Source: a virus (lineage: Duplodnaviria > Caudoviricetes). From it: a DNA stretch of 64,000 bases. The stretch lies in the IMG/VR virus record IMGVR_UViG_3300025389_000022, positions 3,671 through 67,670 of that record, one strand, 5' to 3'. Under the pieces are notes generated by a model. The model was not told the DNA's origin. It saw nothing but the letters and a program-made list of their open reading frames with translations, and searched no databases. The stretch's first letter is position 1, and every line of letters begins with the position of its first letter. The translations under genes were made by a program, and so were the position numbers. Below are positions 38,204-62,698 of the stretch, one piece after another.

Positions 38204-38218
38204 CTATCCTCGACCAAC

Positions 38219-39872: not shown

Positions 39873-40055
39873 GTTCGTCTCCGCGTTGTCTCCACGTTAT
39901 ATTCTTATATTATATTAAAGAGAGAAATTGTACACAGAATAATGATTGTCGACTACATTTATTTTTGTTTATGTAAACAGAATTTTTTTGATAAAAATGT
40001 AAGTTTACATACTCTTACCTATGTACATTATCTCAGAATATGATATATTAAGAAT

Positions 40056-40355: not shown

Positions 40356-40372
40356 TAAGAGGATATTATAAT

Positions 40373-40690
40373 ATGACTATATCTCTAGATCTATCTTATA
40401 CTAAGATTAACTCAGGATGTGGTACGTCTCTACAGGGATACATCAAGACCACGTACGCCGACCTCGTACACCTACTAGGTAAACCATCCTATAGGGGAGA
40501 GGGAGAGAAGATAACGTGTGAGTGGATTATTAAGTTTAATAATGGTCCACTAGTAACTATATACGACTATAAGACTGGTAAAACTCCTAAAGATCTATAT
40601 GAATGGCACGTGGGAGGGAACTCTAAGAACGCTCTATTCTATATTAATGAACTCGTTAAGAAGAACGACGTCTACGCTATCGTGAGCTAG
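40373..40690 (+). CDS. Conserved hypothetical phage protein
   Basis: GTSLQGYI..TY..LV..LG.P....K...EW....TIYDYK...WHVGG pattern. Confidence 0.65.
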   Translation: MTISLDLSYTKINSGCGTSLQGYIKTTYADLVHLLGKPSYRGEGEKITCEWIIKFNNGPLVTIYDYKTGKTPKDLYEWHVGGNSKNALFYINELVKKNDVYAIVS

Positions 40691-41127
40691 TCTACGTTGC
40701 TCCATATAATCCCCATACTAGGGGGATAGAGTATGACTAATGTACATATTTTCTGTGTGGATTAAAAACATCACTCTGGAAACACGTGCATCACTGTGAA
40801 CCACCGTTTACATTCTGAAAACAAAGTGTGGTTGACATTCATGTTTACAGTTGACATCTCTGGGCTCTATGGTATAATCTAATTATGATAAGGAATCGCA
40901 CGATGGTACGCAGGGCGCTCACTGACTTCTTCGCTACGGCCACTCTGACTTGGCCCTATCCACTCTGTAAGTACATGCTCTATCTCCAGGGCTGGCTTGG
41001 GTTGACATACGATAATATAGACTAGTATACAATAAACAAAGTGCTCTGTCAACTACAAATAATGGTTGACAATATCTGAGAACTTGGTATAATAGTCTAT
41101 ACGAACGACACAATAGGAGCTTGATTC

Positions 41128-41379
41128 ATGGCTAGATCATCAGCCTACAGGTTTACAGTCACCTCTCTAGAGGATCCTAGACTGGCTGAGCTGAGAGAGT
41201 TTGTCTCGTATACAAACACCATTAGAGAGCCAGGTACCGAGAGACGCAGAGTCTCTATTAGGCCGAGACTGGGCAAGAAGAACCCATACGCGTTCATGTA
41301 TCGCGGCATGTACCAGAGATCAATTAAGCGTAGCCATGCAAAGCACTTTGATATTTACGTCCACTGGGACGCGCGATGA
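41128..41379 (+). CDS. Hypothetical early protein
   Basis: AGGAG RBS and its own promoter at 41066. Confidence 0.6.
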   Translation: MARSSAYRFTVTSLEDPRLAELREFVSYTNTIREPGTERRRVSIRPRLGKKNPYAFMYRGMYQRSIKRSHAKHFDIYVHWDAR

Positions 41380-41419
41380 GTATACATACGCCTACTGCAC
41401 TATAAGCTAGGAGACTATC

Positions 41420-41659
41420 ATGCCGTACTACAGATTCGAGGAAGCGTGCCGGACGTTGACAGAGTGTGTCGATGCCATAGATATAGAGGTAGATGCCGGC
41501 TTGTCTTATGATGAGTTCGTCGCCGGCCTGTCGAGCGACCATGATAGGGATTCGTTCGAGCAGCTGGTGATCGCATGCGAGAACTTTATCGAGGTGATTG
41601 AGTGGCTCAAGATACCGGTAGAGGACGTCGACGAGGACGGAGTATACATACGTATGTAA
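41420..41659 (+). CDS. Hypothetical acidic early protein
   Basis: AGGAG RBS. Confidence 0.6.
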   Translation: MPYYRFEEACRTLTECVDAIDIEVDAGLSYDEFVAGLSSDHDRDSFEQLVIACENFIEVIEWLKIPVEDVDEDGVYIRM

Positions 41660-41747
41660 ACAGAATTATTTTCAGTTTACAATCACTTTCCCTATTGACA
41701 TATTCTTAGAGTATGGTATATTGAGACTATAAGCTAAGGAGAACGAC

Positions 41748-41918
41748 ATGAATGCTCGGTTTGTAAACAAGTCCGTACCATCATCCATGGCCCAGGCTAT
41801 AGCTGCATGCACGGTGCCGGTCACGGTTGTCAACAAGGGCTCTAACAGGCGCCACCAGACCGGCTTCTCCAACACCCAGATCTTCAAGGGTACGTACCGC
41901 GTGCCGGTAAAGTTCTGA
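41748..41918 (+). CDS. Hypothetical 56-aa early protein
   Basis: Manual translation MNARFVNKSV...YRVPVKF. AAGGAG RBS after the promoter at 41695. Confidence 0.55.
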   Translation: MNARFVNKSVPSSMAQAIAACTVPVTVVNKGSNRRHQTGFSNTQIFKGTYRVPVKF

Positions 41919-42100
41919 AAATAAGTGATTGTCGACTACACTTTTGTGGTTGACATGTTCTAAGAATATGGTAATATAAGAATATAACATGGAGACAAGA
42001 TCATGAATACGCAAGAGCTTCAGAACGTCATCGGCCTCTCGATCGTTACGGTCGGCCTGCTGGTATTCGTCGTTATGGTTCAGGTGCTCGAGGTGATCCA

Positions 42101-42286
42101 ATGAAGGTAGGCACGTATAAGCTGCTCATAGAGTACTACGACCACCAGTCCAACCACCCGCTCAAGGTCGCGTTCTCAGGGATCAGCCGGTCGGCGGTCC
42201 AGCGCTACATGGCCTATTACAGGAGAAAGTACGTGGTCAAGAGCTGGATGATGCTCGACCGTCCCGATGGACTTGTATCGTTCTGA
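42101..42286 (+). CDS. Hypothetical early protein
   Basis: Coupled to an upstream 33-aa hydrophobic ORF (42003-42104). Confidence 0.5.
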   Translation: MKVGTYKLLIEYYDHQSNHPLKVAFSGISRSAVQRYMAYYRRKYVVKSWMMLDRPDGLVSF

Positions 42287-42388
42287 TACAGTTTATGTAA
42301 ACAGAAAAAAGTGTATGTAAACTGCACTTTGTGGGTTGACAAGTTCCGAGAATATGGTACTATGAGAATATAACATGGAGACAGTGAT

Positions 42389-42886
42389 ATGACAACGTTT
42401 ACTAAGCACGCATACGCCCTCAAGGTACTCGGCGACAACAGCGCGATCACCGAGGCAGACTTCATCGAGCAGATGCTCACGGGCGCCTGCTTCCTCAAGT
42501 CCAGCCCGTTCACGCCGGATCAGGCCAAGGCATACTTTCGCGGCTGCTCCAAGGAGCTCGGTCTCGTCGTAGCCAAGGCGGTTCGCATGAAGCAGCCCAA
42601 GAAGGCAGGCAAGGTCAAGGTCACGCCTCAGAAGTTCCCTAAGGTGCTCATGACCGATAAGCCTAAGGTGACTGACAAGACAGTCGAGGAGCTCGCAGAC
42701 ATCAAGGCTAAGAACCTTGCTCGTCTGAAGGCCGTTGGCGCCAAGTACCAGAAAGGCCAGGTCGCTGCGGTACGGTACTCAGACGAGCCCTTTGATGAGA
42801 GCGCAGTCCCGAACCTGCTGAACGAACTCGACTCGTTCAAGGCCCCAGCGTTTCTCTCGAAGGACGACGTGAAGGCGCTCGTCTAA
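42389..42886 (+). CDS. Hypothetical early protein (Lys/Ala-rich)
   Basis: First gene after the promoter at 42336. GC3-rich, host-like codons. Confidence 0.7.
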   Translation: MTTFTKHAYALKVLGDNSAITEADFIEQMLTGACFLKSSPFTPDQAKAYFRGCSKELGLVVAKAVRMKQPKKAGKVKVTPQKFPKVLMTDKPKVTDKTVEELADIKAKNLARLKAVGAKYQKGQVAAVRYSDEPFDESAVPNLLNELDSFKAPAFLSKDDVKALV

Positions 42887-43066
42887 CAGGCTCTGCAGTG
42901 CGACTGTAAACGGTGTAGGCATCGGGTCTCGGCTCGGTGCCTATATTACATATTTCTAGTGTAAATTGTTTACAATTAACAAAATAAAAGTGTAGTTTAC
43001 AATCACTTTCCTATGTACATTCTGGCCGGATATGGTATTATAAGAATATAAGCTGAGGAGAGTCGG

Positions 43067-43246
43067 ATGGATCGCAAGGTTATACAGATCGCCTATATCG
43101 AGGACGCGGTGGAGCGCATGTCGGTCGAGGAGCTGGTGTGGTTCGCTAAGATGCGCATGAAGGAGGACCTAGACCTGCTGGACGACGAGGAGCTGATCGC
43201 TGAGGTCCGCGATCTGGCGCCTGAGCTTCTGGAGGAGTCGAAATGA
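43067..43246 (+). CDS. Hypothetical acidic 59-aa early protein
   Basis: Manual translation MDRKVIQIAYIEDAVERMSVEELVW. GAGGAG RBS after the promoter at 43014. Confidence 0.6.
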   Translation: MDRKVIQIAYIEDAVERMSVEELVWFAKMRMKEDLDLLDDEELIAEVRDLAPELLEESK

Positions 43247-43378
43247 ATAGCGTGCACCAGGTGATCTTCTCCGGCTCGTTCCGGTACGTGGCCAGGCGCC
43301 TCGATGAGATGTCGGACCTCGGCTACAGAGTGGTCAAGTCTAAGAAGTGGTCCGACGACAAGTGGACGTACGTGATGA

Positions 43379-43894
43379 CTAAAGATATTCGAAGGTGAAC
43401 GGACACTTGAATGTTGGTCTAGCGTCTGGTTTGACTTTAGTGCATATAGTTCGTCTGGTAATACCGAGAGCATTAGCGCATTCATTAACGCTATCGTATA
43501 CTATTCCGGTCTGTATGCATCTTACCTTCTGTCTGCGATGACCACTGGCTAACTGAGCAGCCGACATACTAAGACGTGCTTCTTCTGTTACTGGTGGTCT
43601 GTTGTGCCAGTTCTCTCGTAGCTTATCGGACATCTTCTTCCTGGCCTCTTCTATATGTCGCCAGCCGGTTCTACGTCTATTGGATTCTCTTATGGTCTCT
43701 GACATGATCTCGTCCATACCTACTAACCCTGATATGCATTTAAATGCGATGAGATCATAGTGATTGCCATGCTTCTCGTATAGCTCTTTATGAGCTTCTG
43801 CGTGTTCTTCTATGGTGAGTTTGATAAGATTAGATGGGTCGTCAGTGCCGCCCATGTGCTTGGGGATGATGTGGTGGATATGATAAGTAGTCAT
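43379..43894 (-). CDS. Free-standing HNH homing endonuclease with NUMOD3/NUMOD1-type DNA-binding repeats
   Basis: HHIIPKHMGGTDD.SNL..LT.EEH..AH, H.EE.RKKMS and C..TG.VYDS..E.A..LG motifs. Confidence 0.9.
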   Translation of the reverse strand: MTTYHIHHIIPKHMGGTDDPSNLIKLTIEEHAEAHKELYEKHGNHYDLIAFKCISGLVGMDEIMSETIRESNRRRTGWRHIEEARKKMSDKLRENWHNRPPVTEEARLSMSAAQLASGHRRQKVRCIQTGIVYDSVNECANALGITRRTICTKVKPDARPTFKCPFTFEYL

Positions 43895-43998
43895 GCTGAT
43901 GCCTCTGTGTTAGGTGTTAGAGCCCATGGATGTTAGCGCATCGCGATGGGTATTATATTTATTCAACTAATATACGTGATGGAGAAGGAGATCAAGCG

Positions 43999-44175
43999 AT
44001 GAGCCGCATCCCTAGGGAGTACACGAACAAGATCGCCGAGATGGTCGACAATCACGTCCTCGACAAGGGCCGTCTCATAGAGGACCTGCTCTGCTGGATG
44101 TCTGAGGACGACGTCAAGGACTTCTACATGGCGAACATAGCTCCGGAGTTCGACGATGAAGAAGAAGAGGAATAG
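43999..44175 (+). CDS. Hypothetical acidic protein
   Basis: AAGGAG RBS precedes MSRIPREY. Confidence 0.6.
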   Translation: MSRIPREYTNKIAEMVDNHVLDKGRLIEDLLCWMSEDDVKDFYMANIAPEFDDEEEEE

Positions 44176-44366
44176 GCCGGTAAACGTATACGCCATGGCC
44201 CTGTCTGAGAATGTATACAGACAGAGGGTAGTGCAGTCGAGGCGCGTATACAATCGCAAGAGACTGTCTAAAATATAGTCATCGGTAACCCCTGTTTACA
44301 TTCACTTTTTTGTGTACTTTATCTCCACTTATGGTATTATAAGAATATAGGCTGACGTGAGACACC

Positions 44367-44585
44367 ATGGAGACTGTGATGAAAGTTTATACCCTTTCCC
44401 ACTGCACCTCATACGAAGGCGATAACTTACTTGGTATCTACCAGTATCTCTCTCAGGCACAAGAAGCCGAGTATGCATTCAAACTCAACGAAGAAATGTT
44501 TGATGCTTGGACTGAGATACGTGAAGTAACTATGGGTGCTGCTCCTAAGCTCGATTTTGGTGGACTCGGTGAGGAGGTAAAGTAA
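44367..44585 (+). CDS. Hypothetical early protein
   Basis: First gene after the promoter at 44313. Confidence 0.55.
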   Translation: METVMKVYTLSHCTSYEGDNLLGIYQYLSQAQEAEYAFKLNEEMFDAWTEIREVTMGAAPKLDFGGLGEEVK

Positions 44586-45058
44586 TGGCATATCTCAACG
44601 CGCTCGACGCCGACTCCGGATGGGTCGTCGTATATATAACCCTAGACAAGGTGAACTGGGCCGGCCCGTCCAGCTCAATATGGATCGTTCCGGGTACGAT
44701 CGACGAAACCGCGAGGTGGTAACATGACACTTATGGAAGAGTTCGCTAAGTACGACTGCCGTCTCATAAAGGACGAGGAGTCACTGGTCTGGCTCGGCAT
44801 GGCTCTCTGGGAGGAATGATCATGGCTGAGACCGTACTGGGGCTGCTCCTCGTGCCCGTCATATTCGCGGCCGCTGTCGCAATCGATCGCTACTTTGGAG
44901 ACTGGTGATGCCTGAGTTCTTTTCTAGAGACGCTGACTCGAGACTCCATGAGATCGCGTCCGTGCTGTATGGCAGACTCGAGGATCTCAGAGAGGGCATG
45001 GACGTCCGGTCTGAGTTCAAGTTCCTGTGCGAGCTCCTAGACAGGATGGAGAGGTGAT

Positions 45059-45241
45059 GTGTCTAAGATAGTAAAGATGATCGATCCTCCTGGTGGATGG
45101 AGATATGGTTTTCCTAAAATCATACCAGAAGGCGTCGACGTCATAAAGTGGCTGGTAGAACAGGGTTATCCACAGGCCGAGATCGACAGCTGTGGCGATC
45201 ATTTCTACTGTAGGTACTGGCAGGAGGAGATAGACGAATGA
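45059..45241 (+). CDS. Conserved small phage protein
   Basis: MIDPP.GWRYGFPK.......WL...GYP pattern. Confidence 0.6.
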   Translation: MSKIVKMIDPPGGWRYGFPKIIPEGVDVIKWLVEQGYPQAEIDSCGDHFYCRYWQEEIDE

Positions 45242-45594
45242 GTGACTATACAGACCTTGTGAAGCGATTGCGTCGTGATGGCGTTGCTGCCCGAGACACA
45301 TTGAAATGTGTGGAAATGGCGCCTACGGTTGACCCAGAAGATGCGCTTGAAGCCGCTGATGCTATTGAGGCGCAAGCAAAACGAATTGAGGAACTAGAGG
45401 CTGATCTCATAGAAAAGATTAACGTTGATAGGATCGTCTTGGAAGAACTAAAAGAGTCCTATCGTGAGACGATCCGGGTCGATGATGATGAGGCATTACT
45501 AATTGCCCTCAATGCGGTGATCTCATATTATTCTACTCATGAAGAGTACCAGGAGTGGATAGTAGAGAAGAATAAATTGAGGGAAAAGAAATGA
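45238..45594 (+). CDS. Coiled-coil hypothetical protein, paralog 1
   Basis: MSDYTDLVKRLR...EAADAIE...RIEELEA. Confidence 0.65.
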   Translation: MSDYTDLVKRLRRDGVAARDTLKCVEMAPTVDPEDALEAADAIEAQAKRIEELEADLIEKINVDRIVLEELKESYRETIRVDDDEALLIALNAVISYYSTHEEYQEWIVEKNKLREKK

Positions 45595-45938
45595 CTGACT
45601 ATTCAGACCTTATGACACGATTGAGAGAACATGCCGAAAATATGTATGTAGATTTCCTCAATGAAGCCGCCGATGCTATTGAGCTTTTACAGCGCGAACT
45701 AAAATGCGCGAATGAACTATGGGAGCAGCAAAAGGAACTGGCATTGGAATATTTGGCTGACATAGAGAAGGCTAATGAGCGGATTGCTGAACTAGAGGCA
45801 GCGTTAAAGCCGTTCGCGCTAGGAGAGACAGCAATAGAAGCCGGACATAATGCTGCATCAGACGACTATCCTTTGATGCAAGTTGTATCATGTGGCGACC
45901 TACGCCAAGCTCGTAAGGTATTAGGAGAGAAGGAATGA
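45591..45938 (+). CDS. Coiled-coil hypothetical protein, paralog 2
   Basis: MTDYSDLMTRLR...EAADAIE...RIAELEAALKPFA...GDLRQA. Confidence 0.65.
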   Translation: MTDYSDLMTRLREHAENMYVDFLNEAADAIELLQRELKCANELWEQQKELALEYLADIEKANERIAELEAALKPFALGETAIEAGHNAASDDYPLMQVVSCGDLRQARKVLGEKE

Positions 45939-46339
45939 CTGACTATTCAAATCTTGTAAAGCGTCAGCGAGAAATATCAGAAGCCTCATACAAAATGCGT
46001 GATAATATTTACCGTCCAGTAAATGAGACTGCCGACGCATTAGAGGCGAAGGACGCGGAAATAGATTATTGGAAAAACCGCACCCGCGAAGCACTCGAAA
46101 CAATAAATCACATCGAACGCATTGCACAAAAACAATCTGATGAACTGAATGTGCTTCGTGGTAGCATAGCGAATTACCAGGTTGGAGTGCATGAAGCTCG
46201 CATCGCTGAACTAGAGGCAGCACTACGACCGTTTGCTGATGCCAGTGATCTCCACCTTGGTAGCGATGATATGTCTATAGCGTTTCGTATAATCATCGGA
46301 AACCTACGTCAAGCTAAGAGCGTATTGGATAACAAATGA
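45935..46339 (+). CDS. Coiled-coil hypothetical protein, paralog 3
   Basis: MTDYSNLVKRQR...ETADALE...RIAELEAALRPFA...GNLRQA. Confidence 0.65.
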   Translation: MTDYSNLVKRQREISEASYKMRDNIYRPVNETADALEAKDAEIDYWKNRTREALETINHIERIAQKQSDELNVLRGSIANYQVGVHEARIAELEAALRPFADASDLHLGSDDMSIAFRIIIGNLRQAKSVLDNK

Positions 46340-46542
46340 CAGACTTCAGAGAATTAACAGACGAGCAGGTGCTGGAGGAGGCCCATCGCCTGGCGCGGTC
46401 CGTCTCGTACTACAACGCTGCAGAGGGCAACTGGGACAGGGAGCGTCGAGAGCGCGAGGCTTGCTACGTCCAGTATCGCGCGGTGATGAGAGAGATGAGT
46501 GCTCGTGGACTTGAGTTTGTCAACAAGGGGTACCTACTATGA
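46336..46542 (+). CDS. Hypothetical protein
   Basis: ATGA-coupled ORF. Confidence 0.55.
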   Translation: MTDFRELTDEQVLEEAHRLARSVSYYNAAEGNWDRERREREACYVQYRAVMREMSARGLEFVNKGYLL

Positions 46543-46922
46543 AGTTTCAGTTAAGAGACCGTGTCATCATGGTCGTGACAGAGACAAAGTATAGAGGAGA
46601 GATCGGCACGGTCGTAGATCTAGACTGCGTCGGAAACCACGTGGTCAACCTCGTGGTCCAGTTCGACTGCAACAAGATCGGTCATCACGTTAGGTTTCCT
46701 TCTCACTACTTCGAGCTCTACTTTCGAAAAGAAGTGCATGATCCCGAACCAGTCAAAGACTATGAGAGCATGAACTTTGTTCTTCAAGAGAAGATACAGA
46801 GACTCAACGAGTATATCGCGAAGCTCGAGGACGACGGGTTCAAGTATCGAAGAGCTCTTGTTGAGATACAAATGAAGGCGCAGGAAACTCTAAGACCGAT
46901 ACCGTTTCAGGAGGATGAATAA
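46539..46922 (+). CDS. Hypothetical protein (SH3-like N-terminus plus coiled coil)
   Basis: KFQL.DRV.......Y.GEIGTVV pattern. Confidence 0.55.
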   Translation: MKFQLRDRVIMVVTETKYRGEIGTVVDLDCVGNHVVNLVVQFDCNKIGHHVRFPSHYFELYFRKEVHDPEPVKDYESMNFVLQEKIQRLNEYIAKLEDDGFKYRRALVEIQMKAQETLRPIPFQEDE

Positions 46923-46971
46923 TGTTACTAAATCGCAAGACAGAGATCTATTGGCTGTGGAACCCTAGATT

Positions 46972-47265
46972 ATGGGAGATCGGCTCTACGCCGAGGTTCA
47001 ACTCGGGCGATCCATATGTCTCGTATCACTTCGGGCCGATATGGATAAGGAGGTGGGGATGGAAGACGAACTACTGAGACTCAAAGAGTTCAGAGATCTG
47101 GTATACTTCATAGCGAACGACTACCACGAGCTCTCGTACGAGAAGGCCGTCTGGCAGCGAGACGACTGGAAGAGGCGCTGTAATAAGTTAATAGAGGAAT
47201 TAGAGTCAGACGATGATAGTGATTCGGTTCCCGGGCATCCACACATAGAGGGTGATAATGACTAG
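46972..47265 (+). CDS. Hypothetical protein (likely start about 47059)
   Basis: AGGAGG RBS before MEDELLRL. Confidence 0.5.
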   Translation: MGDRLYAEVQLGRSICLVSLRADMDKEVGMEDELLRLKEFRDLVYFIANDYHELSYEKAVWQRDDWKRRCNKLIEELESDDDSDSVPGHPHIEGDND

Positions 47266-47397
47266 TCACTGTTCAATTTATACTCTATATAGAGCATTAA
47301 TGAAGTCTCAGAATAGGGGTCTCTGTACCGAGCACAGTTTAATTGACTCCGCGCGCCTTTGGTGGTATAATGGCTACGAGACTAACGAGAGGTTATT

Positions 47398-47598
47398 TTG
47401 ATGTCTTACATGTCTGATAAAGATCTTGCCATTAGAGAAGATATGGAAGACGTGGATCCGTATTCTTATTTCGAAGAAGGTGAACACGGTTTCATTTCGA
47501 GCTCTGTTAATCCATACGAGGTCGGTTCTTTCGCCTACTCAGAGTGGGACAGGGGTTATATGAGCATGGCGAAGAGGGAGTCTCGAGATGAGCGCTGA
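47398..47598 (+). CDS. Hypothetical acidic protein
   Basis: Follows a TTGACT-N-TATAAT promoter near 47343. F.EG...NPY...EW.RGY pattern. Confidence 0.55.
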   Translation: MMSYMSDKDLAIREDMEDVDPYSYFEEGEHGFISSSVNPYEVGSFAYSEWDRGYMSMAKRESRDER

Positions 47599-47779
47599 GC
47601 GTCCGAAGAGGCCTATATTGGACTCTACCACGTACTACAACTACGTCCCCGCCGAGCTGATCGACTGCATGAAGAGGTCGATCGCTGAGCTGAATGAAAA
47701 GGTCGAGAGGCTAGAGGCGCGCCTGTCGTACATCGAGCTGTTAGAAGACGAGGAGTCTACGCTACATGAAGAACATTGA
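47588..47779 (+). CDS. Hypothetical coiled-coil protein
   Basis: Coupled ORF. Confidence 0.5.
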   Translation: MSAERPKRPILDSTTYYNYVPAELIDCMKRSIAELNEKVERLEARLSYIELLEDEESTLHEEH

Positions 47780-48035
47780 CATCCAGAGGCGTCTCACTGT
47801 TAAGGTCGAGTTTACCCCCGAACAGTGGGACCTCTATATACAGCCGGAGAACGACGCGGACTACGCCGCCGTCAAGCTGAATATTGAGCTAGAGAGGCTC
47901 GTTAACTCCGGAATGAGCCGTTCAGAGGTGGAGCGCTCCATGCACGAGCTCATGAGGTCTCTGGCCCACCACGGCGCGTACGACTCGGAGCCTATATACT
48001 TTCTAGGGTGCGTCCTAGACGAGGTGTACGCATGA
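47766..48035 (+). CDS. Hypothetical protein
   Basis: GAGGAG RBS. Confidence 0.55.
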   Translation: MKNIDIQRRLTVKVEFTPEQWDLYIQPENDADYAAVKLNIELERLVNSGMSRSEVERSMHELMRSLAHHGAYDSEPIYFLGCVLDEVYA

Positions 48036-48164
48036 CGGTCACTGCACAGGTACCACTCGGGTGAACCGCGGGTGACTCCGTTTCAGGTCACCCACACACC
48101 TAGGAGACATTCAGTGATACTCAGCAGTGGGTCAGAGAGATAAAAAAATAGCCCTGCTTAAAGA

Positions 48165-48172
48165 TATAAATA
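48165..48172 (+). promoter_or_regulatory. Late promoter TATAAATA
   Basis: Exact match 30 nt upstream of the ORF at 48203. Confidence 0.75.
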
Positions 48173-48202
48173 AGAGTACGTATGATTTTAGATAGGTGAT
48201 AT

Positions 48203-48406
48203 ATGTCGAATTTAAGCGAGGGACTCCTACACCGTAAAGAAGTTGCTAAGGAGCGCATGCTGATATGTATGGAGTGTGATAGGTACAACCACACGACTAC
48301 CCAGTGCGGCGAGTGCCAGTGCGTCATGCTGGTTAAGACTATATTCCCGAGCTCATCTTGCCCGCTCGGTAAGTGGGGCGCAGACCTCACGCCTAAGAAA
48401 GATTAA
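48203..48406 (+). CDS. Small Cys-rich Zn-binding protein
   Basis: ERM.IC..C......QC..C.C.M..KT......CP.GKW motif. Confidence 0.75.
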   Translation: MSNLSEGLLHRKEVAKERMLICMECDRYNHTTTQCGECQCVMLVKTIFPSSSCPLGKWGADLTPKKD

Positions 48407-48416
48407 AGGATACTGA

Positions 48417-49100
48417 ATGACATTACCTGCTTCCGGATCAATAACATTTTCTCAGATATCACAGATTGTATATAATAGTTCTTCTGCTACCACTTCACTT
48501 GGTACTTCAGACGTACGCTATCTCCTTGGTGTTGCTTCCGGACAGATATCTATTAGCTCGGGCTACAGCAAGCCTACGACGTACTCTTACAGCTACACCT
48601 CTCCAGGTACTTACACTCTCGTTACCCCTCCGTATCAGTACATGGACGTGTACACATATGGTGGTGGACAGGGAGGACAGGGTGGTTCCGGCGGCGGAAC
48701 ATGTACTCAGTGGTGTGGGGTTTACTGCTTCGTGTCGTACTGCTGCAATGTGTCTGGTCCAGGTGTTGGCGGTGATGGATCCGGATCTTCATTTTCTGGT
48801 GCTGGTATAACATCTGTAGTAGCGAACGCTGGTACATCTGGTGGAGCCGGTGGTGGTTCTGGTGGTTCTGTTACTACTGGTGGTGGTGGCGCCGGTGGTG
48901 GAGGTGGTGGAGCAACCGGTTGTGCTGGAGGTACAGGAGCGACAGGAAACGCAGGTGGTAGGACTATTAATACATATACACATGGTGGTGGCGGACCTGC
49001 TTACGCACTCTCCTGTACTATCGTTGTTGGTTCTGGTGGTTCAGCAACCGGCAACGCCGGCGCCGGCGGTAATGGTACCGTGAACGTAAACACGCGTTAA
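48417..49100 (+). CDS. Glycine-rich fibre-adhesin-like protein
   Basis: MTLPASG.I.FS.I N-terminus, GGGxGG repeats, and a Cys cluster CTQWCGVYCFVSYCC. Confidence 0.7.
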   Translation: MTLPASGSITFSQISQIVYNSSSATTSLGTSDVRYLLGVASGQISISSGYSKPTTYSYSYTSPGTYTLVTPPYQYMDVYTYGGGQGGQGGSGGGTCTQWCGVYCFVSYCCNVSGPGVGGDGSGSSFSGAGITSVVANAGTSGGAGGGSGGSVTTGGGGAGGGGGGATGCAGGTGATGNAGGRTINTYTHGGGGPAYALSCTIVVGSGGSATGNAGAGGNGTVNVNTR

Positions 49101-49112
49101 TCGAGGTATAGT

Positions 49113-49709
49113 ATGAAAACAAAAGAACAAAATTATTATATTCAACTTGGTGAGAACGGCGGTCCTATAACTTATCCTATTCTTGAAGAGAACCTAAAGC
49201 ACGTCATTCCTAACTTCGATCCAAAGAACCCTCCGCAGAACCTAGTCAAGTTCGTCAAGACCCCGCCGCCTGAGCTAAAGGGTGAAGAGAGATACGACTA
49301 CCTAGACTACGAGCACTGTCCTAAGCTGTCAAAGAAGCACGGGCAGCCTACGTGGAAAGAGGTCCACAACGTCAAGCTGATAACGCCCGAGGAGCGCGAT
49401 GAGATAATCAAGAAGTTTAAGGAGCTCAATCCTGAGCTCGACGACTGGGTATACGACGCAGATACGGCGTCTCTAGTTCCTCCTATTCCAAAGCCGGTAG
49501 ACGACAAGACGTACTACTGGGACGTTTATCATAAGACGTGGCTCGAGTCTACCCCTGAGCTGCACCTAGACGACATGATGGAGGTAGCTAAGGAGCTCGG
49601 ACACGACCTGACTAAATTAGGTGCGAATACGAGTCTGAGCCACGACGACGTGAGAAAGATAGTAGACGAGGTAACTAAGGGACAGCAGAAGAGACCTCCA
49701 AAGAATTAG
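49113..49709 (+). CDS. Hypothetical protein (possible fibre assembly helper)
   Basis: W..D.....VPP.PKP.D...Y.WD....W motif. Confidence 0.55.
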   Translation: MKTKEQNYYIQLGENGGPITYPILEENLKHVIPNFDPKNPPQNLVKFVKTPPPELKGEERYDYLDYEHCPKLSKKHGQPTWKEVHNVKLITPEERDEIIKKFKELNPELDDWVYDADTASLVPPIPKPVDDKTYYWDVYHKTWLESTPELHLDDMMEVAKELGHDLTKLGANTSLSHDDVRKIVDEVTKGQQKRPPKN

Positions 49710-49720
49710 GAATTGTAGAT

Positions 49721-50329
49721 ATGAGTGAAAAGCCCCCGTTTAAATTATTGGGCAACGTCGATCCTAGAGGTCTAATTGAAAAAGTAAATTCTATATTCGA
49801 CAGGGGTTGGGAGCAATACTGCTTCGATCCTGGCCCTCCATGGAACAGGCTCAATAAGACTGCGGCGATTCATCAGATACTATTGTTTTCTCTTCCGGAC
49901 AGAAAGAATATCGTCTTAAAGGAGTTCATATATAATTCTGAGTTTCTTAATACTTTTAGAGAAGACATAGAGGAAGTCGATAGGATATACGGGAGTCACT
50001 ATCCTAACCAGAACGCTAAGAGGATAACGCTGAACATCCTCAGGCCTTACTCTATAATTCCTGAGCACGTGGACTTCATGGCCCACTACGAGAAGACTAC
50101 TAGAATACACGTTCCCATCATCACCAATGAGTCTGTAGTGTTTACGTTTCCCACTGTAGATCAGACTCTTAATATGAAAGTCGGTGAGGTGGTGGAGTTC
50201 AACAACAACATACCTCACTCCGGAGTGAATGACGAGAACGAGTACAGGGTTCACATGACTCTAGACTACGGCGACGAAAAAGATCCATACTATGGTGAAA
50301 AAGATAGTTACTGGAAGAACTATTTGTGA
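49721..50329 (+). CDS. 2OG-Fe(II) oxygenase, aspartyl/asparaginyl beta-hydroxylase-like
   Basis: HxD (EHVD), RIHVPIITN, M..GEV.EFNN..PH...N...RVH..LD motifs. Confidence 0.85.
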   Translation: MSEKPPFKLLGNVDPRGLIEKVNSIFDRGWEQYCFDPGPPWNRLNKTAAIHQILLFSLPDRKNIVLKEFIYNSEFLNTFREDIEEVDRIYGSHYPNQNAKRITLNILRPYSIIPEHVDFMAHYEKTTRIHVPIITNESVVFTFPTVDQTLNMKVGEVVEFNNNIPHSGVNDENEYRVHMTLDYGDEKDPYYGEKDSYWKNYL

Positions 50330-50358
50330 TATAATAGATCATATCATGGAGTTAAGAG

Positions 50359-50649
50359 ATGCCTAAGATAGTACTAGTAGAGACTGTTTCCACATTTCGA
50401 CACATGTACGCCGTTGAGGTGCCAGACGACGGTGAGATCGAGTGGGCTATTGATACTGTGGTCGACCATGCTACTGGCGCAGAGACAGGGCTATCCGAGT
50501 TTGCCCAGAACCATATCGCCGAGGATACCTTCTCTTATCGTGAAGTATCCGAACAGGAGTATCTAGAAATCTTTGATAAAGAGAACGACTACCTAATAGA
50601 ACTTTCTGACGAACGAAAGAAGTTGTATATCTATAGGGGTGAAGAATGA
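50359..50649 (+). CDS. Hypothetical acidic protein
   Basis: VLVETVS.FRH.Y.VE pattern. GGAG RBS. Confidence 0.6.
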   Translation: MPKIVLVETVSTFRHMYAVEVPDDGEIEWAIDTVVDHATGAETGLSEFAQNHIAEDTFSYREVSEQEYLEIFDKENDYLIELSDERKKLYIYRGEE

Positions 50650-51242
50650 AAGTCTACATTGGACCATACAAGAAGTGGTGGGGACCGTACCAGATCGCGG
50701 ATCTGGTTCCATTCACGTCTGAGGAGCAAAAAGATAAGATCGGTGATTTTCTCTTTAATACCTGGCTGACTAAGGTCTGTGATTGGTTTAACGACATCGC
50801 CGGCGAGCGCGACATCAGAGTACGCATCGACAAGTACGATACTTGGAACATGGACAATACGCTCGCGCTCATTGCTCTTCCTATGCTCAAGCGGCTGCTC
50901 GAGACTAAGAACGGGTCTCCGCCGGTAGACGATGAAGATCTCCCTCCACACATGCGATACGGCAATCCGGATGGAGATGATAACTGGATCCACTATAGGT
51001 GGGAATGGATCATTAAAGAGATGATCTTCTCGTTTGAGAATCTAGTAGACGACTCGTGGCAGAACAAGTACTACCATGGCGAGCCCATCTACGTGTTTAA
51101 GCCCATCGACGATACATTTAAAGAGGTGGTACAGACGAACCCGGAGTATCATTTTGACGCAGTAGGTTATAAAGCGTACAACGAAAGAATATCGAACGGC
51201 TTTAGACTGTTTGGTAAGTACTACCGCAGCCTGTGGGACTGA
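50646..51242 (+). CDS. Conserved hypothetical phage protein
   Basis: V.ID.YDTW.MD.TLA.I..PML..L...K.G.P...W.WI..EMI..F...G..LFGKYY..LWD pattern. Confidence 0.75.
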   Translation: MKVYIGPYKKWWGPYQIADLVPFTSEEQKDKIGDFLFNTWLTKVCDWFNDIAGERDIRVRIDKYDTWNMDNTLALIALPMLKRLLETKNGSPPVDDEDLPPHMRYGNPDGDDNWIHYRWEWIIKEMIFSFENLVDDSWQNKYYHGEPIYVFKPIDDTFKEVVQTNPEYHFDAVGYKAYNERISNGFRLFGKYYRSLWD

Positions 51243-51432
51243 TATCATGAGCGATTGGAAAGACGCGGCCGCAGAGGCCATATGCAAGAAGTGCCACTCG
51301 TGGTGGGACAACAACGACGACCGCAACGGTCTTAAGACTATATGGCGGAAAGAGATAAGAGAGATCATCGAGAGTCACATTAAAGACGAATCAACGAGTT
51401 CTACTAGTAAGACTAGAGAGGATGTAGGATGA
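51211..51432 (+). CDS. Hypothetical protein (likely start 51247)
   Basis: Operonic context. Confidence 0.45.
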   Translation: MVSTTAACGTDIMSDWKDAAAEAICKKCHSWWDNNDDRNGLKTIWRKEIREIIESHIKDESTSSTSKTREDVG

Positions 51433-51629
51433 CAGAGCACGAGATCGAAAAAGAATTCTCAGCCAAGCTGAAGTGGATCGACGAGGCGTACCAGACTAAA
51501 CAGATCGGCATCTATGAGTACGAGGCTGAGATCGACGCTCTAGAAGACTGGCTTGAAAATAAATACGCTAGAGCAGGACTCAAGTCTATTAAAGAACGCA
51601 TGCACACAGAGGGTCCAAGTTATGACTGA
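51429..51629 (+). CDS. Hypothetical protein
   Basis: Coupled ORF. Confidence 0.5.
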   Translation: MTEHEIEKEFSAKLKWIDEAYQTKQIGIYEYEAEIDALEDWLENKYARAGLKSIKERMHTEGPSYD

Positions 51630-51798
51630 AGAACAGTTCAAGTACGTCACAGACGCCCTATACAATCGCTATCACGAGCTGCAGCACGAGACCGACGAGC
51701 TTCCTGAGACGGAGTTTGAGGCGGGTTTTCATATGGCGTCTAAAGGTCACCTTAAGTGGCTAGAAGAGCTGTTGGCAGAGATCGAAGTTATTGGATAG
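51622..51798 (+). CDS. Hypothetical protein
   Basis: Start taken at ATG 51622, coupled to the upstream gene. Confidence 0.5.
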   Translation: MTEEQFKYVTDALYNRYHELQHETDELPETEFEAGFHMASKGHLKWLEELLAEIEVIG

Positions 51799-52084
51799 CG
51801 TCATGGTGACGATAGGCAAGTACACACTCCCATTCTTTGGTGAAATAAAGCTGGACATACCATACGGCGCTCAGTTCTTATCAGTCAACATGCACGAGAG
51901 AAAAATCGTGATGTACGCTATAGTAGACCAAGACTCCACAGTGGAGTGCCGTAAGTTTAGAATATACAGTACAGGGGGAAATATCGAGCGTTCGGATCTG
52001 CACTCTTTGAGATTTATTGGCACCGTGCAGGATGAGCACTGGTCTGAGGAGTGGCACGTGTTCGAGCGCGTAGATCGCCGCTAA
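51791..52084 (+). CDS. Conserved small phage protein
   Basis: I.KY.L......P.GA..LSV......MYA.VD......TG......FIGTV...WHVFE pattern. Confidence 0.65.
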   Translation: MDSVMVTIGKYTLPFFGEIKLDIPYGAQFLSVNMHERKIVMYAIVDQDSTVECRKFRIYSTGGNIERSDLHSLRFIGTVQDEHWSEEWHVFERVDRR

Positions 52085-52119: not shown

Positions 52120-52311
52120 GTGTCTGATAAGAAAAAGAAAAAAACTCTGCAGTCTAAAGTATATGAGTTCATACCTGTGAAAGATATTAATATAGAAGAA
52201 ATAGAAGAGCTAGCTACGCTAGTAAGAATAGGAGTCGGCGGTCATATTATAGATATGGCGTCTGATGGATTAAAGAGACATTTTACAGAAATTAAGGACA
52301 GTAAGAAATGA
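52120..52311 (+). CDS. Hypothetical protein
   Basis: Y.F.P..DI...E...L...G.....RHF pattern. Confidence 0.5.
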   Translation: MSDKKKKKTLQSKVYEFIPVKDINIEEIEELATLVRIGVGGHIIDMASDGLKRHFTEIKDSKK

Positions 52312-52814
52312 CAGATAGTCCAAAAAAGATATCTGATCTAACATGGATGAAGATCGCAGGTAGTTATATAGGACTGCATGAAGGAACAGACCTTAAAGCG
52401 AATCCTACAGTCATTAAGTTCTTTAAAGAGAGTGGTCATCCTGAAGTCAAGAATGATCATCAGACACCGTGGTGCGCAGCTTTTGTTGGTGCTGTTCTCA
52501 AAGAGGCAGGACTACCAAATACAGGATCATTGCTTGCGTTGAGTTACGCAAAATATGGTCAAAAATTAAGTAAACCAATTGTTGGCGCTATTGCCACCAA
52601 GAAAAGAAAAGGAGGGGGCCATGTATTCTTCATTGCTTCTTTTGACGATAAGTATGTCTATGGGCTGGGTGGTAATCAAAACGATCAGGTCTCGATTGCA
52701 AGATTTGACAGAAAAGTCATTAATTCGTATTCCTGGCCGGAAGGGATCAAGATACCAGAGAAACAAGACAATATATTAGTATCTAATGTAGCAACCAACG
52801 TTAAGGAGTCATAG
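52308..52814 (+). CDS. TIGR02594-family NlpC/P60-like peptidoglycan hydrolase (candidate endolysin)
   Basis: WM.IA....G..E, D.TPWCAAFV..VL and GGGHV.F......LGGNQ.D.V motifs. Confidence 0.85.
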   Translation: MTDSPKKISDLTWMKIAGSYIGLHEGTDLKANPTVIKFFKESGHPEVKNDHQTPWCAAFVGAVLKEAGLPNTGSLLALSYAKYGQKLSKPIVGAIATKKRKGGGHVFFIASFDDKYVYGLGGNQNDQVSIARFDRKVINSYSWPEGIKIPEKQDNILVSNVATNVKES

Positions 52815-53159: not shown

Positions 53160-53948
53160 ATGCGCAAAAATAAATACTTCGTATCATCAACACGGAGAAA
53201 TGTTTTGAAATCTAAAGATAAGAAAAAGTATCGTTCGATTTTTATATCGGACGTGCATCTTGGATTTAAACATTGTAATGCTGAAAAACTACTTCATTTC
53301 CTAAAAACTACAGAAGCTGATACCTATTATCTAATAGGAGACATTATTGACGGCTGGGCAATGAAAAGTAAATTCTATTGGCCGCAGTCACACAACAATG
53401 TAGTGCAGCATTTTTTAAAGTTATCAAAGAAAGATCATAAAGTCATTTACGTAACAGGAAACCACGATGAATTCCTTAGAAATTATTCTGGAACTGTTCT
53501 GGGAAATATTCAAGTGGTTGATGAAGCCATTCATGAAGGACCCTTGGGACAGCGATTCTTAGTTATTCATGGCGATCAATTTGACATGGTAACCATGAAT
53601 GCTAAATGGTTAGTTCATATTGGTTCATGGGCTTATGATGTTATGATATCTTTAAACTCAAAGTTACATTGGTTATTTACTAAACTGAATATGCCTGGAT
53701 TTTCTTTATCTGCTTGGGCAAAACACAATGTTAAAGAAGCAGTAAACTTTATAGGAGATTATGAGAATGTCGTTGCTGAATACGCTTCTAAGCGAGACGT
53801 TGCTGGCGTTGTCTGCGGTCATATTCATTCTTGCAATATTAGAGATATGAATGGTATTAAGTATATGAACACGGGTGATTGGGTAGAGTCTTGTACTGCA
53901 ATCGTAGAAGATTTTGAAGGTAATTTCTCAATAGCGAGAATTTTATGA
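53160..53948 (+). CDS. plcP: Calcineurin-like metallophosphoesterase, PlcP (phospholipase C)/LpxH-like
   Basis: FISDVHLG, YLIGDIIDGW, GNHDE, HGDQFD, CGHIH and MNTGDWVESCTA motifs. Followed by a GT4 gene. Confidence 0.75.
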   Translation: MRKNKYFVSSTRRNVLKSKDKKKYRSIFISDVHLGFKHCNAEKLLHFLKTTEADTYYLIGDIIDGWAMKSKFYWPQSHNNVVQHFLKLSKKDHKVIYVTGNHDEFLRNYSGTVLGNIQVVDEAIHEGPLGQRFLVIHGDQFDMVTMNAKWLVHIGSWAYDVMISLNSKLHWLFTKLNMPGFSLSAWAKHNVKEAVNFIGDYENVVAEYASKRDVAGVVCGHIHSCNIRDMNGIKYMNTGDWVESCTAIVEDFEGNFSIARIL

Positions 53949-54940
53949 ATATAACTATATTTACTGATGCTTGGGATCCACAGATCAACGGTGTAGTGAC
54001 TACATTAAAGACTACCGTAGATCATCTAAAAAGACGAGGATACGACGTTCACGTCGTGCATCCCGGTCTATATAAGTTAACAGTTCCACTACAACCATCC
54101 ACTGGAATCTTTATGCCGGTTTTGCCTATGGGTATTGCTGATGAAGAGGTGAAGAATGCCGACTACATTCACATCGCAACAGAAGGAGCTATAGGTCTTG
54201 CCGCTAGGTATTCTTGCAAGAAGTACAAAAAGAAGTTTACGACATCCTTTCATACAAAGTATCCGGAATACGTCAAGATTCATACTGGTATATCACCAAG
54301 AGTTAGCGGTAAGTATTTTCGTTGGTTCCATAGAAACAGCCATTGTGTTATGGTTACAACCCCCTCTATGGTTGACTACTGTGCTGAATTGGGTATTAAA
54401 AAATTAAAGATCTGGTCAAGAGGTGTTGACACGTCTCTATATAGACCAGAGTATGAAGAAAAGAAGATAAATCCTAACTCTATAAATGCTGTGTACTGTG
54501 GTAGAATATCAGCAGAGAAGAATTTAGAAGCGTTTCTTTCAATAGAAGATTCTCGTATTCGTAAGACTCTTATTGGTGATGGTCCGCAGCTTGACGAGTA
54601 CAAGATAAAGTATCCAAAAGCAAAGTTCTTAGGTAAGATGAATAAGTATCAGATAGCGAATGAGCTCCGTAAGCACGACGTGTTTGCATGGCCGTCGTTG
54701 ACTGATACTTTTGGCCTAGTAGTCTTAGAAGGAATGGCGAGTGGACTACCTGTCGCTGCATTTGATAACGAAGTCAATCGCTACATTATTGAAGACGATA
54801 AGTCAGGTATTCTAATGAAAGATAATTTAAAAGAAGCGATATTGATGGCTACTCAACTAGAAAAGAAAGATGCTGTTGATAGAGCAAAGAAGTTCTCTTG
54901 GGAAGCAGCCACAGAACAATTTATTGAGAATCTAATATGA
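53945..54940 (+). CDS. GT4 glycosyltransferase, Agt-like glycolipid synthase
   Basis: TDAW.PQ.NGVV.T, HIATEG.IG.AAR, FTT.FHT.YPEY, W.RGVD, GR.S.EKN and PS.TDTFGLV.LE.MASG.PV motifs. Confidence 0.85.
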   Translation: MNITIFTDAWDPQINGVVTTLKTTVDHLKRRGYDVHVVHPGLYKLTVPLQPSTGIFMPVLPMGIADEEVKNADYIHIATEGAIGLAARYSCKKYKKKFTTSFHTKYPEYVKIHTGISPRVSGKYFRWFHRNSHCVMVTTPSMVDYCAELGIKKLKIWSRGVDTSLYRPEYEEKKINPNSINAVYCGRISAEKNLEAFLSIEDSRIRKTLIGDGPQLDEYKIKYPKAKFLGKMNKYQIANELRKHDVFAWPSLTDTFGLVVLEGMASGLPVAAFDNEVNRYIIEDDKSGILMKDNLKEAILMATQLEKKDAVDRAKKFSWEAATEQFIENLI

Positions 54941-55161
54941 AAGATTTAGAAAAATACTATATGATTGTTCCTCAAGAATATCTTGAAGATGGTGCTAAAC
55001 TAATGAGAGAAGAAGGTGAAGAAGAGAATGCTTTTCAGAAGATGATCGATGTTTCTAGAGAATATAAAGAAGCAGATCTTACTCCAGTTGTTGTTTATGA
55101 TTTTAAATCTAAAAGCATGATATGCATAGTTAAAGAGCTATATGGCAAGAAATTGCACTAA
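54937..55161 (+). CDS. Hypothetical protein
   Basis: ATGA-coupled ORF. Confidence 0.55.
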   Translation: MKDLEKYYMIVPQEYLEDGAKLMREEGEEENAFQKMIDVSREYKEADLTPVVVYDFKSKSMICIVKELYGKKLH

Positions 55162-55673: not shown

Positions 55674-55689
55674 ATCGACCATAAATATG

Positions 55690-55714
55690 GGGAGGGGTCC
55701 ACCCTCCCTTTTTT
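55690..55714 (+). terminator. Intrinsic terminator after hsp20
   Basis: GGGAGGG-GTCCA-CCCTCCC-TTTTTT. Confidence 0.8.
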
Positions 55715-55730: not shown

Positions 55731-56246
55731 ATGCCATCAGCCAAGTGTAAAGAGTTGTTTCCGCACGAAGATATACTAAGATTGAATGAATTCTTTGGAG
55801 ATCCTTCCGGAAAAAACGGTGAAGTAGACCCTAAGTGGTTTAAAGAGAACATCGTAAAGTGGACTCCACCATATCCGATGTTTTTTAACGCTACTGGACA
55901 GAAATTTAGCACAATGAAGCTTCATAAGAAAGTCGTTGATGTGTATACATCAGCTTTTACAGAAGTATTAAATCATTTTGGTAAAGACAACATCAAGAAG
56001 CTGCATCTCGATCAATCTGGTGGCACTTTTAACTATCGACTGATGCGAGGTGGTGATAGATTATCAGTTCATTCTTGGGGTATTGCGATAGATATGGATC
56101 CAGCAAGAAATCCATGGCCGTCTTCTTGGCACGAAGGCATGCTAAATCATGATTTTGCTGATATTTTACAAAAACATGGACTCTGGTGGAGAGGATCTCC
56201 AGGAGATAATGATCCAATGCATTTTCAGTGTGCGTGGAGAAATTAA
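55731..56246 (+). CDS. M15-family peptidoglycan peptidase (candidate endolysin)
   Basis: GG.FNYR.MRG...LS.HSWG.AID.DP and W.G...D.MHFQ motifs. Confidence 0.85.
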   Translation: MPSAKCKELFPHEDILRLNEFFGDPSGKNGEVDPKWFKENIVKWTPPYPMFFNATGQKFSTMKLHKKVVDVYTSAFTEVLNHFGKDNIKKLHLDQSGGTFNYRLMRGGDRLSVHSWGIAIDMDPARNPWPSSWHEGMLNHDFADILQKHGLWWRGSPGDNDPMHFQCAWRN

Positions 56247-61951: not shown

Positions 61952-62698
61952 ATGACTGCTAGAAAGTATGGTTGGCGGCCTGATAAACCGGACTATAGAG
62001 ATAAAATTTGTACTTTAAGAGCAAAACGCGGCGTTTCAAAGAACGTTGACCTAAGAACGACAGGTCATCTGCCTCCTGTTTATGATCAAGGTCAGCTTGG
62101 TTCTTGCACCGGCAACGCAATTGCAGCCGCTGTAGCATATGGTCTAAGAGCACAAGGTAAGCACGATTATAACCCTTCTCGCTTGTTTATATATTATAAC
62201 GAGCGCGTTTTAGAGGGTACTACCTCTATCGATGCTGGCGCAGAAGAGCGTGATGGTATTAAAGTCGTTGCTACTTTAGGATCTCCTTCTGAAGATATTT
62301 GGCCGTATGATATTTCTAGATTCGCTGAAAGACCTTCTGATCAAGTATACGCTGAAGCTAAGAAGAGCATAATTAAACAGTATTCTAGAGTTCCTGTTAA
62401 GTTAGCAAATATTCAGAACGTATTAACACATCAGATTCCCATCGTATTTGGTATAGCTCTCTATGAGTCATTTGAGAGCGATGCAGTCGCTGCTAGTGGC
62501 GTAGTTCCAATGCCTGATCTTTCTGAAAGAATGATCGGTGGTCATTGTATGCTATTAGTAGGTTCGACCGACACTCACTTTATAGTCCGCAATTCATGGG
62601 GAGAAGGATGGGGAGATAGAGGTTATTGCTATATCCCTCATGAATACGTAACTGACACTAGACTTGCAGACGATTTTTGGGCGATCTTTTTATCATGA
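61952..62698 (+). CDS. Papain-family (C1A) cysteine peptidase
   Basis: Catalytic DQGQLGSC, GGH.MLLVG and RNSWG..WG..GY motifs. Confidence 0.92.
   Translation: MTARKYGWRPDKPDYRDKICTLRAKRGVSKNVDLRTTGHLPPVYDQGQLGSCTGNAIAAAVAYGLRAQGKHDYNPSRLFIYYNERVLEGTTSIDAGAEERDGIKVVATLGSPSEDIWPYDISRFAERPSDQVYAEAKKSIIKQYSRVPVKLANIQNVLTHQIPIVFGIALYESFESDAVAASGVVPMPDLSERMIGGHCMLLVGSTDTHFIVRNSWGEGWGDRGYCYIPHEYVTDTRLADDFWAIFLS

Follow-up and report, generated by a model that had tools for sequence, protein, structure and literature searches.

Why would a T4-like phage carry two adjacent genes that resemble a bacterial pathway for exchanging membrane phospholipids for glycolipids? The question is raised by a 64,000-nucleotide stretch of viral DNA, referred to here as the window (positions 3,671 to 67,670 of IMG/VR virus record IMGVR_UViG_3300025389_000022), in which a PlcP-like metallophosphoesterase gene overlaps a downstream gene for an Agt-like family-4 glycosyltransferase (GT4):

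53160 to 53948, plus strand: plcP-like gene, 262 amino acids (aa), a predicted PlcP-family metallophosphoesterase of the intracellular phospholipase C type, assigned from the open reading frame (ORF), Pfam, a tree and a structure model
53945 to 54940, plus strand: agt-like gene, 331 aa, a predicted GT4 of the Agt/GTcp clade (diacylglycerol glucosyl or glucuronosyl transferase)

Our reading, to which we give a probability of about 75%, is that the phage has its own copy of the bacterial plcP-agt operon for lipid renovation, which would act as a phage-timed module for phospholipid-to-glycolipid remodelling. A first-pass annotation, made from the DNA letters alone, had already proposed a phage-borne pair of this kind; that proposal holds up, with failing LpxH models, a GNHD motif, the phylogeny, plcP-agt synteny, the Agt signature and the viral context all agreeing with it.

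The two ORFs were both recovered, and every motif that the first-pass annotation had quoted for them is present. In the esterase these are SDVHLG (residues 30-35), GDIIDGW (60-66), GNHDE (100-104), HGD (137-139), GHIH (220-223) and NTGDWVES (237-244), and in the transferase TDAW.PQ.NGVV (7-18), HIATEG (76-81), FHT.YPEY (102-109), RGVD (159-162) and DTFGLV.LE (254-262). The sequence at the junction, ...TTTTATGAATAT..., joins stop and start in one ATGA, and so the coupling described earlier is also correct. Pfam assigns Metallophos to the first protein (E 1e-10) and both Glyco_transf_4 (E 9e-20) and Glycos_transf_1 (E 2e-17) to the second, whose 331 aa have a GT-B architecture. Because hundreds of relatives are 65-92% identical and pairwise dN/dS is 0.05-0.17 for both genes, both ORFs are genuine genes under selection. 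The start of the first is doubtful: an alternative TTG at 53205, with GGAG 8 nt upstream, would give a protein of 247 aa, matching the 245-247 aa of most relatives, and the 15-residue N-terminal extension upstream of it, which the structure model shows as disordered, is common only to the closest relatives.

What kind of esterase is this? The metallophosphoesterases that resemble it most in structure belong to LpxH, the UDP-2,3-diacylglucosamine diphosphatase of lipid A synthesis, and relatives are commonly given that name, yet the LpxH assignment fails. The protein scores 41.7 bits against NF003743 (cut-off 134) and 40.7 against TIGR01854 (cut-off 190.35), its GNHD aligns opposite the GNRD of LpxH chains in the PDB, and sequence matches to those chains reach only E about 1e-3 at 17-21% identity. 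Among 14 control genomes the LpxH model passed its cut-off in E. coli alone, with a sub-cut-off match in Caulobacter. The calcineurin-like phosphoesterase motifs (DxH, GD, GNH[DE], H and GHxH) are all intact, and the metal-binding and catalytic residues D31, H33, D61, N101, H102, H137, H221 and H223 are invariant in alignments of 14 and of 52 sequences.

Thousands of esterase relatives turned up among 5.8 billion proteins searched. Identity is 64-91% in the top 72 clusters, which comprise about 470 sequences and are mostly unnamed or automatically named 'LpxH'; the next matches are 52-59% identical, and the named ones among them come from Hyphomicrobiales (Beijerinckiaceae, Hansschlegelia, Pinisolibacter). 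Among the matches listed, the best from named genomes are 48-55% identical and belong to Bradyrhizobium, Rhizobium, Agrobacterium tumefaciens, Methylocystis, Beijerinckiaceae and Pseudomonas. A homologue occurs in 142 of 401 evenly sampled Alphaproteobacteria, nearly always as a single copy, and neither there nor among the matches listed did any cellular genome hold one above 55% identity. In a maximum-likelihood tree rooted on E. coli LpxH, all viral sequences and the metagenomic relatives of at least 64% identity form one clade (SH-aLRT 99), which is nested in a 95%-supported group of alphaproteobacterial PlcP homologues from Rhizobiaceae (A. tumefaciens included), Nitrobacteraceae and Beijerinckiaceae. 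The Pseudomonas clade falls outside that group, and E. coli LpxH lies about 10 changes per site away. The first-pass annotation had preferred PlcP to LpxH and named a phylogeny as the check; with the esterase inside the alphaproteobacterial PlcP homologues and LpxH a distant outgroup, the phylogeny agrees with the model scores and the GNHD motif in favouring the PlcP type.

The structure prediction adds a lipid connection. An AF2 model (pLDDT 83) shows the phosphoesterase sandwich with a helical insert at residues 138-211, and in a fold search the 25 best PDB matches were all LpxH (E about 5e-10, TM 0.54-0.64), with Mre11-type nucleases about 1000-fold weaker. In LpxH the insert at the equivalent position is a lipid-binding lid, and this LpxH-like fold with a helical lid makes the esterase look lipid-directed without being LpxH. 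The phage protein and LpxH (PDB 5K8K, 5B49, 8QJZ) thus have in common the metallophosphoesterase core and a helical lid between HGD and GHxH, but the genomic partner of the phage esterase is agt rather than the lipid A genes. From sequence and model together, the first protein looks like a lipid-directed, Mn/metal-dependent phosphoesterase of the PlcP family.

The second protein can be placed more narrowly. Agt and GTcp form a clade less than 25% identical to other GT4s, in which a His104/Asp256 dyad (the Asp replacing the usual GT4 Glu), GRVAxEKN and FPSxTDTFG motifs, and diacylglycerol (DAG) contacts at Thr162, Arg163 and Trp320 have been described, the DAG-contact and catalytic residues of GTcp having been defined by mutagenesis (Wei et al. 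2021, PMC8231724; bioRxiv 10.1101/2021.03.25.437072). The phage GT4 matches this signature with H103, D254, S158-R159, GRISAEKN (186-193), WPSLTDTFG (249-257), E262 and W319, and across 82 phage and bacterial sequences conservation reaches 97% or more at the majority of these positions. Bacterial GT4s linked to plcP have 36-42% identity to the phage GT4. In the A. tumefaciens genome there is exactly one close homologue (38% identity, E 6e-64), which we infer to be atu2297; agt is unlinked to plcP there. Agt (atu2297) and GTcp of Pelagibacter sp. HTCC7211 are GT4s of about 330 aa that have the His/Asp dyad, GRxxxEKN, xPSxTDTFG and the Arg and Trp DAG contacts in common with the phage protein; relative to GTcp, Ser158 stands in place of Thr162, as it does in the Agrobacterium copy. 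Judged by its sequence, the phage protein is a GT4 of the Agt/GTcp clade, with the catalytic His-Asp pair, both predicted UDP-sugar motifs and the DAG-contact residues in place, and the Agt-type label given in the first pass is well founded.

Other assignments for the transferase fell away. The Acholeplasma-type alpha-monoglucosyl-DAG synthase model NF049988 gave 64.8 bits against a cut-off of 400, a relationship at the GT4 level only, and the phage GT4 passed none of the curated models for other glycolipid synthases. A Pfam 'GT4-conflict' hit (24.2 against a cut-off of 26) covered only the generic donor-binding stretch. Solved GT4 structures match at E 2.5e-5 or weaker.

How closely does the pair follow a bacterial arrangement? 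PlcP has reportedly been characterised in S. meliloti, Phaeobacter MED193, Pelagibacter HTCC7211 and P. aeruginosa. Characteristic of such enzymes is a cleavage of PC, PE or PG to DAG that depends on Mn2+, and of the Agt/GTcp clade a transfer of Glc, GlcA or Gal to DAG from a UDP-sugar. In 56 of the 80 best bacterial loci the esterase homologue is followed directly, on the same strand and after 57-245 nt, by a GT4 homologue, which is the 'type 2' plcP-agt layout described by Sebastian et al. 2016 (PMC4796936). The phage pair has the same gene order and strand, its esterase is 48-55% and its transferase 36-42% identical to alphaproteobacterial and Pseudomonas homologues, and the catalytic motifs of the bacterial operon are all intact in it; these identities fall about in the range separating the proteins of Methylosinus trichosporium OB3b from the characterised ones of HTCC7211 (51% for PlcP and 43% for Agt; PMC9239053). 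In that type II methanotroph, knockout of plcP-agt abolished glucuronosyl-DAG (GADG) and slowed growth at low phosphate, and the deletion lowered methane oxidation and disturbed the packing of the intracytoplasmic membranes (PMC9239053). The phage version differs from the bacterial operon in being ATGA-coupled rather than spaced by 57-245 nt, in lacking both the upstream Pho box through which phosphate starvation induces a PhoB-regulated plcP-agt operon and the C-terminal tail of the bacterial transferases, in having an extra coupled ORF of 74 aa, in its T4-like carrier and in a base composition that has drifted to the phage level. Its GC fraction is 0.35 in plcP and 0.39 in agt (0.29 and 0.36 at third codon positions, GC3), against 0.36 in the phage polymerase and 0.50-0.69 in bacterial homologues.

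The pair is also conserved as a pair among phages. Scanning IMG/VR gave 24 loci whose esterase is 66-91% identical, and the GT4 follows it directly in all 23 that have sequence downstream. The phage copies of the GT4 group in a single clade (support 100%), and within this phage-only clade the pair is kept under purifying selection. Neighbouring genes differ among viral relatives while plcP-agt persists, and the flanks of the non-syntenic viral loci are phage-like, with ribonucleotide reductase, thymidylate synthase, exonuclease and a primase/terminase-like ATPase.

Cultured phages hold little that is similar. A blastn search of the pair against 50,697 phage records gave no match, no cultured-phage GT4 exceeded 28% identity, and the only cultured phages in the collection with an esterase homologue are Pelagibacter phage Mosig EXVC030M (Mosig_00120, 40%) and Synechococcus phage S-SRM01 (38%, named 'UDP-2,3-diacylglucosamine diphosphatase'). 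Both of these are lone genes without an agt partner, on long basal branches outside the phage clade of the window. In Mosig, a cultured SAR11 phage, the PlcP-like gene (L001:3906-5741) stands back-to-back with pstS and is annotated as a UDP-2,3-diacylglucosamine hydrolase; it may be misannotated like other relatives. An aspartyl/asparaginyl beta-hydroxylase-family gene also adjoins pstS and the PlcP-like gene in Mosig. That family is a core gene of pelagimyophages (PMC7029224), and the window has a member at 49721-50329 on the plus strand.

The carrier itself is clear. The window is a fragment of an uncultured T4-like myovirus from a lake, with gp5/6/7/8-type baseplate wedge and hub genes, gp32, a family-B DNA polymerase (gp43), UvsX and a gp41-type helicase, and T4-like cyanophage polymerases reach no more than 50% identity to its own. 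The window comes from a 67.7-kb viral contig of IMG/VR with an estimated completeness of about 40%. Contigs of 160-175 kb carry close relatives, and one of 166,772 bp holds an identical GT4 and a near-identical esterase; the complete genome is probably about 165 kb. The pair sits between a CHAP-domain gene and hsp20, immediately upstream of replication genes, and phage genes flank it on both sides, as is asked of a phage auxiliary metabolic gene. As for the host, the window encodes a permuted (two-piece) tmRNA of alphaproteobacterial type (32288-32644 and 32061-32135, both on the minus strand; tag peptide GANDNFAPFDIALAA), which scores 83.5 bits with Rfam tmRNA_permuted and 62.4 bits with alpha_tmRNA and adjoins a tRNA-Arg(TCT). 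Together with the esterase tree, this tmRNA hints at an alphaproteobacterial host, and the hosts are probably lake alphaproteobacteria related to methanotrophs.

In the mechanism we propose, PlcP would cleave host glycerophospholipids during infection into DAG and a phospho-head group, and Agt would move glucose or glucuronic acid from a UDP-sugar onto the DAG. Membrane area would be preserved as phosphorus-free glycolipid while the lipid phosphorus would pass to the soluble pool. As the likely benefit, the phosphorus so freed would serve replication of a genome of probably about 165 kb, and membranes would be kept functional in phosphorus-poor lake hosts. The exclusion of other phages could also be the gain.

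Several points weigh against this account. Every functional claim in it rests on homology. PlcP yields phospho-alcohols rather than free phosphate, and the phosphatase step that would be needed has not been identified. The tree is anchored only on orthologues from the same genera or families as the characterised proteins SMc00171, MED193_17359, PB7211_983/960, PA3219/3218 and atu2297. In some relatives a cluster of sugar-nucleotide and glycosyltransferase genes beside the pair could indicate glycan rather than lipid chemistry. The link to phosphate stress is not supported by this fragment either: a Pho-box pattern gave three matches in the window where 7.1 are expected by chance, none of them near the pair, and neither pstS nor phoH occurs in the 67.7-kb record, which is itself incomplete. 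The co-occurrence with phoH or pstS in related phages that the first-pass annotation had suggested was not borne out, as five related fragments, also incomplete, have phoH in one only, about 50 kb from the pair, and neither gene near it.

The immediate neighbourhood suggests how the genes would be expressed:

52308 to 52814, upstream of the pair: gene with a CHAP/gp5-type lysozyme domain
54937 to 55161, plus strand: small acidic ORF of 74 aa with no assigned function, ATGA-coupled to the GT4 stop codon
55221 to 55673, plus strand: hsp20, Hsp20 small heat-shock protein (Pfam HSP20 E 4e-16; phrog_432 E 6e-36)
55689 to 55709, plus strand: intrinsic-terminator-like hairpin and T-run (8-bp stem with six G-C pairs, then TTTTTTATTTT)
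55731 to 56246, downstream of the pair: M15 peptidase/endolysin-like gene

The esterase gene begins just 15 nt after the preceding ORF, a second ATGA overlap joins the GT4 gene to the 74-aa ORF, hsp20 is the final gene of the co-directional run that contains the pair, and the hairpin after hsp20 is the first terminator-like site downstream. No promoter specific to the pair was found in the window: sigma-70-like sites show no enrichment (19, with 15.7 expected), and the T4 late-promoter motif TATAAATA has nine matches against 6.1 expected, the nearest on the plus strand being at 48165, about 5 kb upstream. With neither a promoter nor a Pho box of its own, and in a packed co-directional run that extends to a terminator, the pair is probably transcribed within a long phage unit, with its expression under the phage programme and not under host PhoB. 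The 74-aa ORF, which matches no Pfam or PADLOC family, accompanies the pair within the syntenic phage lineage: tblastn finds homologues of 30-89% identity directly 3' of the GT4 gene in loci L004-L008, L015, L016, L024, L025 and L027.

The same chemistry could bring a different benefit, with altered envelope lipids excluding superinfecting phages or keeping the cell stable until lysis, and no gain in phosphorus. The fragment fits this insofar as no Pho box, pstS or phoH accompanies the pair and its expression seems phage-programmed; two papers (PMC9804370, PMC9938194) reportedly connect lipid renovation or aminolipids to phage attachment, and a survey of pelagimyophages interprets phage glycosyltransferases as devices against coinfection (PMC7029224). 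We nevertheless give it an outside chance, as it is not obvious that glyceroglycolipids built on DAG of the inner membrane would act as surface receptors, the operon serves bacteria under phosphate stress and affects their growth only when phosphate is low (PMC9239053), and the distant PlcP-like gene of Mosig adjoins pstS. A route through glycans or lipopolysaccharide (LPS) would have the esterase act on a sugar-nucleotide or lipid-linked intermediate and the GT4 on LPS, capsule, virion or DNA. In three viral loci (L010:95-4045, L011:293-5183 and L023:30-5346) the pair is preceded by another GT4, a UDP-glucose dehydrogenase and two NAD-dependent epimerases, with a methyltransferase as well in L011 and L023; the nearest solved fold for the esterase is the LpxH of lipid A synthesis, and virus surveys place 'lpxH' in LPS biosynthesis. 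UDP-glucose dehydrogenase makes UDP-glucuronate (UDP-GlcA), the donor for glucuronosyl-DAG, and its presence therefore fits a supply of UDP-GlcA for GADG equally well. With DAG-contact and catalytic residues retained in a GT4 that groups with plcP-linked Agt homologues and belongs to a clade remote from other GT4s, and with the LpxH equivalog models failing, glycan chemistry appears improbable.

Two further possibilities concern the esterase mainly. It might degrade inner-membrane phospholipid late in infection as an aid to lysis, the transferase being incidental, and the position of the pair between the CHAP/gp5-type lysozyme gene and the M15 peptidase/endolysin-like gene could be read that way. 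Tight coupling and universal co-conservation with a DAG-consuming transferase favour a rebuilding of the membrane instead, no late-promoter motif lies nearby, and in relatives the neighbours vary while the pair stays constant; we consider a lytic role very improbable. That the protein is a true LpxH, raising lipid A synthesis, would explain why relatives bear that name in source databases and why the folds are alike, but it is scarcely tenable beside the sub-cut-off scores, the GNHD motif, the length of the branch to the E. coli enzyme and a model that passed in E. coli only. A role in defence was considered too, and PADLOC gave no defence-system family above noise. A membrane-remodelling plcP-agt pair remains the reading that we prefer.

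Where do the viral relatives place this remodelling pair ecologically? Downstream of it, eight of the 24 viral loci carry a full-length pmoC (Pfam AmoC, 361 bits):

L008: 8177 to 8935, pmoC
L011: 8108 to 8872, pmoC
L015: 7860 to 8615, pmoC
L016: 5778 to 6533, pmoC
L023: 8145 to 8909, pmoC
L024, L025 and L027: pmoC also present

In the six of these loci that also hold hsp20, pmoC lies between the pair and hsp20, and so pair, pmoC and hsp20 occur together in all six; L008 and L015 have the gene order of the window. At the equivalent position in the window and in its two nearest relatives there is no pmoC. An AmoC/PmoC family search of the 67.7-kb record found none, by itself a weak result since no control genome matched either, but tblastn of the window with the PmoC of a relative was negative too. 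Large freshwater pmoC-phages of methanotrophs, a connection that the first-pass annotation did not make, have been described by Chen et al. 2020 (PMC7674155), in six of which Hsp20 is encoded beside pmoC; like the relatives of the window they are T4-like, related to cyanomyophages, large, freshwater and hsp20-bearing, and the pmoC-bearing loci correspond to them. The plcP-agt pair is not mentioned in the main text or the supplements examined of that paper. In two viral loci, L010 and L016, we also observed an acyl-CoA dehydrogenase gene.

Some other features of the window stand apart from the pair. Just upstream of it, GC is 0.44-0.50 over 38000-52000, against 0.32-0.42 over most other parts of the window, and ORFs at 49113-51242 reach GC3 values of 0.52-0.62; this block may have a different origin. 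At 61952-62698 on the plus strand, after the gp41-type helicase, lies a gene for a papain-family cysteine protease (Peptidase_C1, E 2e-12), and an 815-aa protein at 25892-28339 on the plus strand, between the baseplate module and gp32, has an endolysin/peptidase-like domain in residues 517-674.

What, then, is new here? The enzymes are ordinary members of their families; the novelty lies in their viral carrier, in a phage-style regulation and in the neighbourhood of pmoC. Phosphorus is often limiting in lakes and oceans, both for hosts and for phage DNA synthesis, and the known phage phosphorus genes (pstS, phoA, phoH) serve uptake. A phage plcP-agt pair would represent a different strategy, tapping host membrane phospholipid while keeping the membrane intact. 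Our literature searches found no published description of such a pair. Two virus surveys give 'lpxH' as an auxiliary gene of LPS biosynthesis, and this gene is probably of the same family as the phage esterase; if it is indeed of the PlcP family, its ecological meaning is being misread. The cassette is common, with about 470 sequences in the 72 clusters of the phage clade and 24 IMG/VR loci.

The position beside pmoC ties the cassette to methanotrophs, in which loss of plcP-agt cuts methane oxidation at low phosphate. Tentatively, then, a large freshwater T4-like phage lineage that includes the pmoC-phages may run lipid renovation independently of host PhoB and to a timetable of the phage; in many of its members an island of the pair, pmoC and hsp20 might sustain methane monooxygenase and the stacked intracytoplasmic membranes of the host as phosphorus from the membrane goes to phage DNA. 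If this is true, viral lipid remodelling would influence how methane is oxidised in lakes where phosphorus is limiting.

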